24,018 nucleotides of DNA from Candidatus Thorarchaeota archaeon (GTDB lineage Archaea > Asgardarchaeota > Thorarchaeia > Thorarchaeales > Thorarchaeaceae), in NCBI GenBank assembly GCA_003345545.1, contig PRDH01000034.1, positions 1-24,018 of the forward strand, read 5' to 3'. Below, in pieces: positions 20,001 to 22,136 of the stretch. Position numbers and translations under genes: made by a program. Under the pieces are notes generated by a model that saw nothing but the letters and a program-made list of their open reading frames with translations, ran no database searches and was not told where the DNA came from. Within the stretch, counting starts at the first letter, position 1; each line of letters begins with the position of its first letter.

Positions 20001-20140
20001 ACGATGGGACTGGTGACAGTAACGTCGAGTCTAGGAACGAGGACTCTCGTAGAAGACGAGGTAAATAGGCAGGGGGTGTAAGCACCAAGCTCCGGCGAGG
20101 TGTTCAGCTCACCTGTACTAATGTCCGAGGCGTGCAGACT
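17061..20140 (+). rRNA. rrl: 23S rRNA, archaeal, unlinked from 16S/5S; ends approximate (+/- ~10 nt)
   Basis: 5' GGTGAATG...GATGAAGGGCGTG.CAAGCTGCGATA; GTPase centre; H69 TAACTATG...CTTAAGGTAGC; PTC CCTCGATGTCGGCTC; SRL GTACGAGAGGAAC; terminal pairing of 17061-17068 with 20133-20140. Confidence 0.97.
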
Positions 20141-20214
20141 GAAAGTGTGTTCATACAGTACCTAGAGTTGTCTCAGGAGTTCGTAATGTGCTTCCATCCT
20201 CTGATGTCTATTTT
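20082..20214 (+). repeat. Direct repeat copy 1: native 23S 3' end plus 3' trailer (BHB half, pairing blocks, T-tract)
   Basis: 20084-20209 matches 22006-22131 at 124/126; 20114-20172 matches 20977-21035 at 57/59. Confidence 0.95.
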
Positions 20215-20216
20215 TT
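20211..20216 (+). terminator. Putative oligo-T terminator of the 23S transcript
   Basis: TTTTTT shortly after the last trailer pairing block; copy 3 also ends in a T-run. Confidence 0.45.
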
Positions 20217-20256
20217 GCAATTGCGCTGAAAATGAAACGATTTCTGAATGGTCTGT

Positions 20257-20592
20257 TTACCTATCAACCAGATTTTCAAGAAGCGTTTTGAGCGGGGGAA
20301 TATCTTCAGTAACAGTCTGCCAGACAATATCTAGATCTACGTCAAAGTAGCCATGGATCAATCTATTACGCATTCCAATCATTTCCTTCCAAGGAATATC
20401 AGGATGTTTATTCATTATGTTTTCAGACATACCTACTGCTGCTTCTCCAATAATCTCCAGTAGTCTCACAAGAGCATGTTTGAGTTTTCTGTCGTTATCT
20501 AGATCTGACCGAACTTTGTTGTGAGTGAACTCTATTACCTCAAGTACTGCATCTAACATATGTTGTATTCTTACTTTATCATCCTTCAACAT
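20257..20592 (-). CDS. hepT: HEPN (DUF86, HepT-like) RNase toxin
   Basis: LEIIGEAA, IPW..I.GMRNRLIHGY (R-x4-H-x-Y); likely start ATG 20592, overlapping the MNT stop. Confidence 0.9.
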   Translation of the reverse strand: MLKDDKVRIQHMLDAVLEVIEFTHNKVRSDLDNDRKLKHALVRLLEIIGEAAVGMSENIMNKHPDIPWKEMIGMRNRLIHGYFDVDLDIVWQTVTEDIPPLKTLLENLVDR

Positions 20593-20881
20593 ATTGAACC
20601 ACTGCCTTGCTAATGACATCTTCCCGAAAATACCTGCTTAAATCATTGGGAGTTCTCAGATCAACATTTCTTCCAAGCATTTTGCTAAGTTCATCTTGCA
20701 TACTCATCAATCTAAAGAAGCCTGGTTTTGCGTCATCGTCGAATTCTACAAGAATATCAACATCACTTTCTGAGTTGAAATCCTTGCGCAATACAGAACC
20801 AAATACTGAGAGTTTTTTAATTCCATTGCGCTTACAGAATTCCCTAATCATATTTTTTGGGATTTCAATAGCAAGAGTCAT
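20579..20881 (-). CDS. mntA: Minimal nucleotidyltransferase (MntA-like) antitoxin
   Basis: FGS-x10-DVD (GSVLRKDFNSESDVD), GRNVDL; ATG 20881 preceded by GAGGT. Confidence 0.9.
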   Translation of the reverse strand: MTLAIEIPKNMIREFCKRNGIKKLSVFGSVLRKDFNSESDVDILVEFDDDAKPGFFRLMSMQDELSKMLGRNVDLRTPNDLSRYFREDVISKAVVQYVEG

Positions 20882-20945
20882 TTTACCAACCTCTACTATT
20901 ATGGACACTCTTCCTTCAATCTCACATTATATTCTCATGCTCTTA

Positions 20946-20959
20946 AAATACTAGTATTT
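20946..20959. promoter_or_regulatory. Perfect 14-bp palindrome AAATACTAGTATTT upstream of mntA (possible operator or recombinase-binding site)
   Basis: Exact palindrome 65 bp upstream of the likely mntA start and 17 bp before repeat copy 2. Confidence 0.5.
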
Positions 20960-20976
20960 CGGTCAAGTGACATATT

Positions 20977-21078
20977 TGTACTAATGTCCGAGGCGTGCAG
21001 ACTGAAAGTGTGTTCATGCAGTACCTAGGGTTGTCAAGAAGAGTTCATTGTAGTAGCGAAGTAGTATCTCCATCCTCT
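20977..21078 (+). repeat. Direct repeat copy 2 (diverged 23S 3' end plus trailer)
   Basis: 57/59 identical over 20977-21035, then divergent but retaining GAGTTC (21041-21046) and TCCATCCTCT (21069-21078). Confidence 0.9.
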
Positions 21079-21234
21079 AGTCTTACCTATCATTTTCATC
21101 CATTCCACAATTTCAAACCCAGTGGAAGTTTTACTTGGCTTTTAGGCATAGGTTCTACGAAAGGGGTGGCTTTGCGGGGTCAGAAAAAGGAAACAATAAG
21201 TAAATATGAATCTAAGTAAAGTGGTGTATCCATT

Positions 21235-21930
21235 ATGAGAGGGGAATCACATCTGATAGCTTCATTCATGATTAGTCTGCCCACTATCTGGGCTCTGTAT
21301 AGTATGGCACCAGACATAATGATTGACGTGATAGGTTATGTCATTGGAGGCGTATTACTGGGTTGCTTACTGCCCGATGTAGATGCTTCAGATGCCAAGG
21401 TGATGCATGGATACTGGAGGCCAATTGGTCTTTTTGGAAAATACTTATTCTATAAACCAATGACGTGGATTTTGAAAACTCGTTCTGATGCATATCGGGA
21501 GCAACACCGCGGATATCTACACTCATTTATTGGTTGTTTTCTCGCAACGATTTTCTTTACGATCCCGATAGCTATCATATTTCTACATTCAACATATGTA
21601 CTGCTTCTTCCCTTAGAAACGACTATTTGGGTTTGGATTGTATGGATTGGATTACCCTTTGGTTTTCTAATGCATTTGGTTGAAGATAGCTTCACAAAGT
21701 CAGGAGTACGATGGATGTTTCCTAACGGCAAAACCTATTCAAGTCAGACGAGCACTGGAAAAAAGAGCGAGTACACTCTTCTCTCAGCATTCATCGTCAC
21801 ATATGGCATTCTCACAGTTATTGTATACATGGCGCCTCCCTCGTTTATTGTTCTATTTGGGGCTATTCTTGGATCCTTGGTTTTGTTGGGTGCGCTTTAT
21901 GCGGCTAATCCGATAATTAGTAGACTTTGA
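21235..21930 (+). CDS. Membrane-bound metal-dependent hydrolase (YdjM/DUF457-like)
   Basis: N-terminal H, LPDVD, HRGYLHS and HLVED motifs with multiple TM segments. Confidence 0.88.
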   Translation: MRGESHLIASFMISLPTIWALYSMAPDIMIDVIGYVIGGVLLGCLLPDVDASDAKVMHGYWRPIGLFGKYLFYKPMTWILKTRSDAYREQHRGYLHSFIGCFLATIFFTIPIAIIFLHSTYVLLLPLETTIWVWIVWIGLPFGFLMHLVEDSFTKSGVRWMFPNGKTYSSQTSTGKKSEYTLLSAFIVTYGILTVIVYMAPPSFIVLFGAILGSLVLLGALYAANPIISRL

Positions 21931-21954
21931 AAGTAGACTGGTGCCAAGCAAAAA

Positions 21955-21997
21955 TGACCGGAAATAGAACTGTAGAAAGTGCTACTTTTCCGGGTCA
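21955..21997. repeat. Imperfect inverted repeat just before repeat copy 3
   Basis: TGACCGGAAATAGAAC-loop-GTGCTACTTTTCCGGGTCA. Confidence 0.7.
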
Positions 21998-22003
21998 GTG
22001 AGG

Positions 22004-22136
22004 GTACCAAGCTCCGGCGAGGTATTCAGCTCACCTGTACTAATGTCCGAGGCGTGCAGACTGAAAGTGTGTTCATACAGTACCTAGAGTTGTTTCAGGA
22101 GTTCGTAATGTGCTTCCATCCTCTGATGTCTGTTTT
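22004..22136 (+). repeat. Direct repeat copy 3 (23S 3' end plus full trailer)
   Basis: Offset 1922 from copy 1; differences at 22005, 22024, 22094 and 22132. Confidence 0.95.

Follow-up and report, generated by a model that had tools for sequence, protein, structure and literature searches.

The locus described here raises the question of how the end of a 23S rRNA gene came to be repeated in tandem, with small protein-coding units between the repeats. The window, meaning the whole stretch of 24,018 nt that was analysed, contains a single 23S gene at 17067-20140 (+), identified with the Rfam family LSU_rRNA_archaea (RF02540; 2481 bits, full-length match 1-2987) and present once across the 2.69-Mb assembly. 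No 16S or 5S gene lies within the 24-kb contig carrying the 23S gene. A repeat search combined with MAFFT alignment showed that a 131-nt tail at 20084-20214 recurs in the same orientation at 20977-21085 and 22006-22136 (BLAST E-values of the within-genome matches, 1e-59 and 7e-22). The first tail is continuous with the full-length 23S gene, and the copy at 22006-22136 matches it over 131 nt with 3 mismatches. BLAST found no further tail copies across the 2.69-Mb assembly.

The unit between tail copies 1 and 2 (20215-20976, 762 nt) carries HepT/MNT genes, and that between copies 2 and 3 (21086-22005) encodes a YdjM-family protein; GC content is 36-42% in cassettes versus 45-49% in the flanks. 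Genes for RNase PH, a nucleotidyltransferase and a WD40 protein lie upstream of the 23S gene in the window. The initial annotation had placed the copies correctly to within 2 nt, save that copy 2 extends a few nt further, and had reported no integrase or transposase between them, in agreement with a Pfam search that found no recombinase or transposase domain there. The features are as follows.

16894..17066, + strand: pre-23S 5' leader, predicted by cofolding with the trailer to form the 5' strand of the processing stem
20084..20214, + strand: tail copy 1, consisting of the final 57 nt of the working 23S gene and a type-A trailer of 74 nt
20257..20619, − strand: HepT (HEPN) toxin gene of cargo unit 1 (PF01934, E=1.3e-29), with an RNRLIH (Rx4H) motif
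20579..20908, − strand: MNT nucleotidyltransferase antitoxin gene of cargo unit 1 (PF01909, E=1.4e-16, and PF18765), with a GSx10DxD motif
20977..21085, + strand: tail copy 2, in which the final 27 nt of 23S precede a type-B trailer, with the BHB 3' bulge at 21027-21029
21235..21930, + strand: YdjM-family (DUF457) membrane protein gene of cargo unit 2 (PF04307, E=7e-16)
22006..22136, + strand: tail copy 3, which combines 57 nt of 23S with a type-A trailer and shares 98% identity with copy 1
22518..23210, + strand: ubiE/COQ5-type methyltransferase gene (PF01209, E=9e-53), which throughout the genus is the conserved gene to the right of the island

Anatomy of the tails and their cargo

Cofolding paired leader positions 16894-16911 with 20187-20202 and 17026-17055 with 20145-20172, and leader positions 16894-16906 are complementary to 20191-20203 as well as to 22113-22125. 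The predicted 3-4-3 bulge-helix-bulge (BHB) consists of a leader bulge at 17038-17040, a helix formed by 17034-17037 and 20160-20163, and a trailer bulge at 20164-20166, which is the BHB 3' bulge of tail copy 1; the distal stem of this copy occupies 20187-20202 and its oligo-T tract 20209-20214. As modelled, leader and trailer would form an archaeal pre-rRNA processing stem with two 3-nt bulges around a 4-bp helix. The earlier proposal was that the copies carry the whole 3' processing arm up to the T-tract; in this fold the pre-23S stem takes its 3' strand from the trailer, which ends in oligo-T. The distal stem co-varies between leader and trailer when compared with the related genome G014, and each species' leader pairs best with its own trailer. 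In silico, the single leader is able to form a 3-4-3 BHB with any of the three tail copies, which raises the testable question of how pre-rRNA is processed when one 5' BHB half meets several 3' halves. A model in which each cassette is a BHB-flanked unit was rejected because leader-strand copies are absent from the cassettes, where only the expected leader-trailer complementarity was found.

In cargo unit 1, MNT comes first and overlaps the start of HepT over 41 nt, and the motifs GS..DVD (MNT) and RNRLIH (HepT) are readable in the translations. Judged by its sequence, this unit appears to be a HepT/MNT (HEPN/MNT) type VII toxin-antitoxin pair. Metagenome contig L084 contains a 78%-identical copy of the whole unit, likewise located between two tails. 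Among the best 80 of 356 HepT relatives in a metagenome search, one belonged to a Thorarchaeia cassette (80% identity), and the others were unrelated HepT genes that lack tails. Cargo genes occur in both orientations relative to the tails. A motif, GGTCA(A)GTGA, had been noted at the right ends of both units, but 12 other right-end junctions, in relatives, have no motif in common at a fixed distance.

Exchange and variability among relatives

The initial annotation had suggested that the 23S 3' end serves as a landing pad for cassettes carrying their own rRNA tail, with variable cargo in relatives as a test. The relatives do hold different genes between 23S and ubiE. In 11 species of the genus, ubiE follows the 23S gene at a spacing of 2.2 to >17 kb, with differing genes between. 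Genome G001 is 94.5% identical to the window over 7.2 kb comprising the 23S gene and upstream DNA; its 23S gene is followed by no fewer than 5 tails and by >17 kb of different cargo, none of which occurs in the window. The locus behaves as an additive flexible genomic island, with a fixed chromosomal position and a content that differs even between close relatives. Arrays comprise at least 12 tails over 25 kb in G092, 6 tails over 13 kb in G094, and the 23S gene plus 6 tails in G049, and all array tails are co-oriented with the 23S gene. Across the family, 19 of the 62 genomes with a match carry at least two tails, and these represent several genera. The phenomenon is family-wide and not special to this genome. 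In a small sample of other Asgard families (G026, G030, G036 and G032), the tail repeat was not found in the 9-20 kb behind the 23S gene. Single tails distant from the 23S gene occur beside tRNA-Sec in G017 and at G001:C15 and G049:C1.

The 5' limits of the tails are clustered but not fixed: 37 of 43 non-native tails begin within a 58-nt span (20074-20131) of the 3-kb gene, at positions that differ at the nucleotide level. Both ends vary from copy to copy, 3' limits and mosaic switch points included, while a core corresponding to 20130-20172 is found in nearly every copy. Older tails are truncated and have decayed to 75-84% identity. Islands that seem tail-less hold scattered short trailer relics, as old, decayed insertions would leave, and the distal stem with the T-tract lasts longest. 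A proximal-to-distal age gradient of tail identity was considered and discarded, since the arrays disagree.

Tail copy 2 bears on transfer between species. Over its first 59 nt it shares 97% identity with 20114-20172; beyond them a diverged trailer extends to about 21085, with a 12-nt insertion and the TCCATCCTCT block kept. The copy is a mosaic, G000-like up to about 21015 and G014-like from CTAGGGTTGTC on, and its distal trailer has 100% identity to the native G014 trailer and 60% to the trailer of its own genome. Moreover, the copy 2 trailer co-varies with the G014 leader (ACTACAAT/ATTGTAGT versus ATTAC/GTAAT in this genome), indicating that the cargo arrived with a foreign rRNA tail. Window positions 20979-22005 are 94.5% identical to G014, whereas housekeeping DNA upstream of the 23S gene is only 66-68% identical; the YdjM protein shares 92.6% identity with its counterpart in G014, which is encoded immediately after the native 23S gene. 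The G014 homology ends exactly at the 22005/22006 boundary, and copy 3 probably represents the original tail, pushed aside and fused to the 5' end of the incoming one. The mosaic switch points differ: that of copy 3 lies within 20084-20111, that of copy 2 within 20152-20164.

Other arrays also record exchange. One internal G001 tail is 98% identical to the native trailer of this genome. Over 5.1 kb, an ABC-transporter cassette and the tail downstream of it share 94.4% identity between G092 and G094; the adjoining cassette shares 79%, and the two cassettes stand in opposite order in these genomes. Cassettes marked by a partial 23S repeat have been exchanged between lineages. These data support the landing-pad proposal, in that the tails are native trailers of other species, and the differing cassette order in sister species supports it further.

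Proposed single-crossover insertion and competing explanations

We favour, with a probability of roughly 0.6, the reading that the island is an additive one at the 3' end of a single-copy, unlinked 23S gene, built by single-crossover recombination within the rRNA tail. The incoming DNA would be circularised, consisting of cargo, 10-170 nt (mostly 10-65 nt) from the end of a 23S gene, and a trailer of about 75-100 nt. One crossover between this circle and the resident tail, which we infer to be of the Campbell type, would leave the cargo between two direct tail copies. The proximal tail would supply the end of the working 23S gene, together with a usable stem for processing, a BHB half and a terminator, while displacing the older copy distally. 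Repeated insertion would produce arrays, such as the three tails of the window and the larger array of G092, while excision between tails and re-insertion would shuffle cassettes and move them between species. The likely history of the window is that 23S-trailerA-ubiE received the YdjM unit with trailer B from a G014-like donor, and then the HepT/MNT unit with an A-type trailer. Against this model, the run contigs revealed neither an excised circle nor an empty site nor a recombination event, and no joint across a cassette was seen in the covered parts of four runs (35-86% read). Terminal overlap, as expected of circularity, was present in 0 of 13 short array contigs. In addition, integration into a pre-existing tail cannot yield the single tails found away from the 23S gene.

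The initial annotation had allowed for either a trans-acting recombinase or homologous recombination. We give about even odds to the crossover being made by host homologous recombination on 60-170 nt of conserved rRNA-derived sequence, with no dedicated integrase; the evidence on the enzyme leans to homologous recombination. The clustering of 5' limits is not predicted by random fragments and homologous recombination, which would need the extra assumption that long repeats are lost or that partial 23S copies are harmful, whereas clustering would be the natural outcome of a site-preferring enzyme. A broader proposal, which we advance tentatively and judge somewhat more apt to fail than to hold, is that Thorarchaeia possess an integrase-free counterpart of the integron, with the 23S tail and trailer as a portable homology arm for any DNA circle. 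Insertion, excision and reshuffling would then proceed by ordinary homologous recombination, even at ~66% core identity between species, and the junction would be policed by selection for a processable 23S end. In a stranger variant, an unrecognised enzyme or an RNA-guided (TnpB-like) nuclease may recognise the tail.

An assembly artefact, in which strain variants or repeats collapsed into a false tandem array, had been named as a possible refutation. The genome is indeed a short-read MAG with 5.4% contamination, and one run contains a further YdjM variant of about 92% identity. However, an independent 91-kb MEGAHIT k141 contig (ENA ERZ27227668) contains the same array, with 11.4 kb at 99.98% identity, and resolves it because k=141 exceeds the 131-nt repeat. 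Every junction is unique sequence covered by contigs from several runs and two studies, Logan contigs from wetland runs covering 20186-21006 and 20988-22054 with no differences, and dozens of MAGs from other studies show the same architecture. The array thus withstands this objection, and an artefact is extremely improbable. Only slightly less improbable is that the copies were made in place when unrelated DNA entered the heavily transcribed 23S end, by a very long target duplication, template switching or slippage, with cassettes that lacked tails of their own. Copies 1 and 3 are 98% identical, and rRNA gene ends are plausible break sites, both of which would fit such an origin. Yet the copy 2 trailer is foreign, identical to that of G014 and matched to the G014 leader; tail and cargo are common as one block to species that are 66% identical in core DNA; and the internal G001 tail matches the trailer of this genome rather than that of G001.

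More weight, though well short of even chances, goes to the tails being att sites, with a site-specific integrase of viruses, plasmids or satellites targeting the 23S 3' end and the arrays being tandem stacks of decayed or integrase-less elements mobilised in trans. The same pattern of partial RNA-gene repeats, older elements displaced inwards by newer ones, and relics is seen in tRNA-anchored tandem islands (10.1101/2020.12.28.424599; PMC7771536). The tail 5' limits cluster in the 58-nt span, and each tail restores a complete gene end, like the attP of tRNA integrases. Furthermore, extrachromosomal elements are often missing from MAGs, and since binning tends to lose plasmids and viruses, a trans-acting integrase could be missed. 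Nevertheless, the search for recombinases beside tails elsewhere, advised by the initial annotation, came back empty: no integrase lies next to any of >60 tails in >10 arrays. Among about 90 cargo ORFs, Pfam detected no recombinase apart from TnpB-like genes in three arrays, and hallmark genes of viruses or plasmids are absent from the cargo. Neither tyrosine nor serine recombinase families had a match in those genomes, 96-99% complete, that hold the largest arrays. PF00589 had 0 matches in G000, G001, G092, G093 and G094, with 14 of 14 control genomes positive, and PF00239 had 0 matches in G092-G094 and G049, with controls positive. Tail limits and mosaic switch points are also not fixed. Viral or plasmid donors were rejected, as a 16-nt core pattern had 6 IMG/VR matches, all of them chance matches of 17-18 nt, and no IMG/VR contig bears a tail. 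The PF00589, PF00239 and cargo searches may leave room for divergent or unbinned enzymes. Numerous cargo proteins match no family, so a novel recombinase could hide among them, and the unannotated cargo includes G001 proteins of 397 and 1902 aa; the recurrent cassette families 19, 20 and 24, considered as hidden recombinases, were rejected as small secreted or membrane proteins. Finally, it is conceivable, though unlikely, that tails are kept or spread for an RNA or signal role, such as alternative cutting of read-through pre-rRNA or cassette insulation, with recombination secondary; this would be compatible with the single-crossover model. Each tail has an oligo-T terminator and a 3' BHB half, all three can form the BHB in silico, the core 20130-20172 recurs in nearly every copy, and the distal stem with the T-tract is the most durable part in old islands. 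On the other hand, cargo genes face both ways relative to the tails, the decay and truncation of older tails argue against strong selection, and such a role leaves unexplained that tails are other species' native trailers.

Comparison with known systems

The closest parallels are tRNA-anchored additive islands, described as tycheposons in Prochlorococcus (10.1101/2020.12.28.424599) and as fGI1 in 'Ca. Actinomarinales' (PMC7771536). In these, as here, a conserved single-copy RNA gene is the insertion point, cassettes end in a partial direct repeat and stack in tandem, decayed relics persist, content differs in close relatives, and cassettes are common to genera. As in elements at RNA-gene 3' ends generally, direct repeats are present and the proximal copy keeps the gene whole, both in the window and in relatives. 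The differences are that the anchor is the 23S 3' end with its processing trailer, the host is an Asgard archaeon, and the repeat measures 60-240 nt versus about 40 nt. Moreover, tycheposons are defined by tyrosine or serine recombinases, whereas no integrase was found here in any array or in the best genomes.

Integrons, which have been reported in Archaea too (10.1101/2022.02.06.479319 / PMC9668308), resemble the arrays in their small cassettes of one to few genes, a recurring 60-140-nt site, toxin-antitoxin cassettes and an order reshuffled between relatives. In contrast to integrons, the locus has no intI, attI or Pc, the 23S gene heads the array, and the genome has no PF00589 match; the repeat lacks the form of an imperfect palindrome and has no fixed limits, and the arrays hold genes of either orientation. 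The possibility that tails are attC-like was rejected, since both strands of all three tails fold no better than their shuffled counterparts (z 0.04 to 1.55). In SAR11, the hypervariable island HVR2 lies directly behind the single-copy 23S of a split rRNA operon and is rich in surface and membrane functions, and its authors proposed homologous recombination at conserved rRNA genes (PMC2217521; 10.64898/2026.04.03.716430). In the text searched, these sources mention neither internal partial 23S repeats nor a cassette structure in HVR2 (PMC2217521; 10.64898/2026.04.03.716430), whereas tails subdivide the Thorarchaeota island. As described there, HVR2 is a replacement island bounded by 23S and 5S (or tRNAs), while the right border here is a protein gene.

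Integrase-less cis-mobilisable elements (CIME) and SCC-type arrays at the 3' ends of conserved genes likewise form tandem units with att-like direct repeats, and many of these units lack a recombinase of their own and are presumably mobilised in trans. Recombinases (ICE integrases, Ccr) are known for such elements, as are att cores that are short and well defined, whereas no recombinase was found here and the tail limits, though clustered, vary. No earlier description of 23S-tail arrays was found in the literature searched, in line with the initial remark that a described archaeal system of such form was not known, and the evidence points to the Thorarchaeota 23S array as an apparently undescribed gene-exchange site.

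No known lineage is closer to eukaryotes than the Asgard archaea. The locus provides a concrete, recurring entry point for foreign genes in these archaea, with dated inter-species transfers, and it adds an rRNA gene to the tRNAs on which the concept of RNA-gene-anchored islands is based. If the integrase-free reading is true, the most conserved sequence of the genome would be the shared recombination site of a cassette pool. Contigs break at tail repeats, which calls for caution in binning and rRNA-based analyses, and the partial 23S tail offers a simple marker by which Thorarchaeia metagenomes can be mined for accessory and defence genes.

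Repeated 23S rRNA tails and the cargo between them

The window, one entire contig of the assembly, carries a single full-length archaeal 23S rRNA gene, the sole RNA family detected there with Rfam, and the 23S copy number is one in the whole 2.69-Mb, 82-contig assembly. The end of this gene and its processing trailer (the "tail") are repeated: 20084-20214, comprising 57 nt of the 23S end and the following 74 nt, recurs at 22006-22136 with three mismatches. Copy 2 starts at 20977, with 97% identity between its initial 59 nt and 20114-20172, and continues as a diverged trailer to ~21085; this trailer has a 12-nt insertion and retains the TCCATCCTCT block. 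The initial annotation had described these copies and two cargo units, with no integrase or transposase between them; its positions are right to within a few bases, and a domain scan of the inter-copy DNA detected neither recombinase nor transposase genes.

Genes at the repeated tails
17067-20140, + strand: 23S rRNA gene (Rfam)
20257-20619, - strand: HepT, toxin-antitoxin pair with MNT; cargo unit 1, between copies 1 and 2
20579-20908, - strand: MNT, toxin-antitoxin pair with HepT; cargo unit 1
21235-21930: YdjM-family membrane protein; cargo unit 2, between copies 2 and 3
After the third tail copy: ubiE-type methyltransferase

The 5' leader of the pre-23S rRNA pairs with the trailer in a distal stem (16894-16911 with 20187-20202) and a proximal stem (17026-17055 with 20145-20172), the latter containing a textbook bulge-helix-bulge (BHB).

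Elements of the BHB
17034-17037 with 20160-20163: central helix, 4 bp
17038-17040: leader bulge, 3 nt
20164-20166: trailer bulge, 3 nt

The 3' half of the BHB and the distal-stem block are kept in all three tail copies, and the repeated segment is closed by an oligo-T tract of the kind that usually serves as terminator in archaea. Because the repeat holds these three elements, each copy is predicted to be sufficient as a 23S 3' end, supplying everything required 3' of the last helices. Within the trailer-pairing stretch of the leader, 16945-16982 is a 19-nt perfect tandem duplication (ACGAAGTTATTACAAAACT). Further upstream of 23S are two neighbouring DNA methyltransferase-like genes (PF01555/PF01170; 8637-10635, ~7 kb away) and a 202-aa ORF matching no Pfam family (13960-14568, - strand), beside nucleotidyltransferase and RNase PH genes in a position kept in several genera.

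That the array is an assembly artefact is extremely improbable, since it is repeated in independent data. A stretch of 11.4 kb including the array recurs, at 99.98% identity, in a 91-kb MEGAHIT contig of an ENA assembly built up to k = 141, longer than the 131-nt repeat. In wetland metagenomes, Logan contigs from two studies span 20186-21006 and 20988-22054, each including one cargo unit and both its unique junctions, and the same tail-cargo architecture is found in many MAGs of other projects. In the public sequencing run X1, the YdjM gene also occurs in a variant form, which over 21669-21844 shows 14 differences per 176 nt and reaches about one-third of the main version's depth; a relative at strain or species level, with the YdjM cassette, coexists in that sample.

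Movement of cargo with foreign tails

Evidence that cargo travels with its tail came from G014, a genome in which the trailer and YdjM gene of the window stand behind the native full-length 23S. The window segment 20979-22005 (copy 2, trailer and YdjM) shares 94.5% identity with G014, and the similarity ends exactly at 22005|22006, the start of copy 3. In housekeeping DNA upstream of 23S the two genomes share only 66-68% identity, so transfer of the block between lineages was recent. In copy 2 the distal trailer matches the native G014 trailer completely, against only 60% identity to the window genome's own. It also co-varies with the G014 leader (ACTACAAT with ATTGTAGT in G014; ATTAC with GTAAT in the window genome), and in cofolding the best partner of each leader is its own trailer. 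Conversely, one internal tail of G001, a relative, matches the native trailer of the window genome at 98% identity and that of G001 itself at 77%. One tail of the genome G022 matches G014's at 98%.

Among 28 species genomes of the genus, the gene conserved downstream of 23S is ubiE, at distances from 2.2 kb to >17 kb. Comparison of this interval across relatives bears out the expectation of variable cargo. Over 7.2 kb of 23S gene and upstream DNA, identity between G001 and the window is 94.5%, and the two have no cargo in common. The 12.6 kb behind the G001 23S hold genes for a TPR, a HEPN-like and a 1902-aa protein and a TnpB-like gene, and a tail follows where the contig ends; on another contig the order is tail, 1.2 kb, tail, 2.4 kb, tail, 198-aa ORF, ubiE. 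Two other genomes, G002 and G010, have three tails each, and apparently tail-less islands contain distal-trailer relics of 27-57 nt.

Cassettes are also reshuffled. An ABC-transporter cassette and its downstream tail are 94.4% identical over 5.1 kb between genomes G092 and G094, whose 23S genes are only slightly closer (95-96%); the adjoining cassette is 79% identical, and the order of the two is reversed. A JGI metagenome contig (L084) has a HepT/MNT unit 78% identical to the window's, also between two tails, with a homologous left border and right junction and a right-hand trailer of another type. Foreign trailers accompanying cargo, and different cargo in relatives, support the initial proposal that the 23S 3' end is a landing pad for cassettes bringing their own tails.

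Proposed insertion by recombination within the tail

The recombination step is the most interesting question that these arrays raise. Their anatomy fits a Campbell-type insertion, in which a circle with tail and cargo would recombine with a resident tail by one crossover; of the two hybrid tails, the proximal would complete the 23S gene and the distal would join the incoming 5' junction to the resident 3' part. Copy 2 is window-genome-like to ~20152 and G014-like from ~20164 (native coordinates), and in copy 3 a foreign base lies close to the 5' end, all after it being native; judged from sequence, such mosaics are the expected trace of single crossovers within the tail, at two different places. 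In the simplest history, 23S followed by the window genome's own trailer type (A) and ubiE would have received the YdjM unit with the G014-like trailer (B), and then the HepT/MNT unit with an A-type trailer, restoring a trailer matched to the leader. The GC content of cargo (36-42%, against 45-49% in the flanks) is consistent with import.

Host homologous recombination is favoured as the agent of insertion because no recombinase is apparent in cargo or genomes, tail limits and switch points both differ among copies, and the tails show no attC-like folding. Of ~90 cargo ORFs scanned, none is a recombinase, except that three arrays contain TnpB-like genes. For PF00589, the tyrosine recombinase family, there was no match, not even of Xer type, in the window genome, G001, G092, G093 or G094 (93-99% complete; controls 14/14), so that these five either lack the enzyme or have one too divergent for the model. 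The serine recombinase family had no match in G092-G094 or G049, with all or most control genomes positive. An integrase acting in trans is unlikely, and we retain it since its encoding plasmid or virus may be missing from MAGs, and on account of clustered 5' limits and isolated tails. The 5' limit falls within 20074-20131 (median 20095), 10-67 nt before the end of the 3-kb 23S gene, in 37 of the 43 non-native tails where it is defined. This clustering is contrary to expectation from random fragments and is what a site-preferring enzyme would give; it could also arise if long, unstable repeats were lost, if longer partial copies of 23S were harmful, or if homology had to reach a minimum length. 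Isolated tails cannot arise by insertion into an existing tail. In G017 (L028:5827-8483, C133) one lies between the PSTK and SepSecS genes at 60 nt from tRNA-Sec, accompanied by a broken MNT gene and three small ORFs of unknown kind; another is among housekeeping genes far from 23S in G001 (L024:7546-8232, C15), and a third among housekeeping genes 240 kb from 23S in G049 (L069:6233-6351, C1). Gene families adjoining them also occur in arrays. The G017 contig shows that this Thorarchaeia genus has selenocysteine machinery (L028:4701-5913, 8513-9172), namely a PSTK/KTI12-like kinase, tRNA-Sec (Rfam, 58.6 bits) and SepSecS.

Distribution and related systems

The 23S-tail array is real and recurrent across a family. 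In a search of all 87 genomes of the class, 19 of the 62 with any match, from several genera, had two or more tail matches. Tails were mapped with each genome's own native tail as query.

Larger arrays
G092: at least 12 co-oriented tails, 25 kb
G094: six tails, 13 kb
G049: 23S and six tails
G097: 23S and four or five tails
G076: 23S and three tails

Cargo includes ABC transporters, M20 and M28 peptidases, nitroreductase and transglutaminase; TPR, LRR, beta-propeller and beta-helix proteins; and DUF4268, additional HepT genes and a large number of small secreted or membrane proteins. The repeat was absent within 9-20 kb behind 23S in a small sample of four genomes from other Asgard families.

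Literature searches gave no description of such arrays. Closest among published systems, in marine bacteria, come tRNA-anchored additive islands and tycheposon arrays, built of stacked cassettes with partial tRNA repeats between them (10.1101/2020.12.28.424599; PMC7771536). Unlike these, the present arrays are anchored on the 3' end and processing trailer of an rRNA, have long repeats and no apparent integrase, and reside in an Asgard archaeon. Integrons look similar as arrays, but their defining parts are absent here. In SAR11, HVR2 starts behind a single-copy 23S, and homologous recombination at rRNA genes has been put forward for it (PMC2217521; 10.64898/2026.04.03.716430).

Two further features concern 23S in relatives. 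In G001 the 12.6-kb cargo has at its distal end a 550-aa TnpB/Cas12f-like gene (L023:1-330 of G001:C17, - strand). Its conserved 3' flank (GGGAAGGGTGGAACA..GAAATGGGTCAA), also present in G094 (L060 near 1163), directly adjoins a 23S tail starting at native position 19972; GTCAAAG is present also 12 nt upstream in native 23S. If the flank is an omega-RNA scaffold, the guide would read 23S sequence. At the site equivalent to 19643/19644, 23S genes of relatives carry insertions of ~230-780 nt that are absent from the window 23S; the longer ones encode a 220-233-aa ORF of one family, and such insertions are likely to be rRNA introns that hold a homing-endonuclease-like gene.

23S insertions at the 19643/19644 equivalent
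L027:6572-7354: G010
L073:220-958: G091
L059:3137-3366: G094
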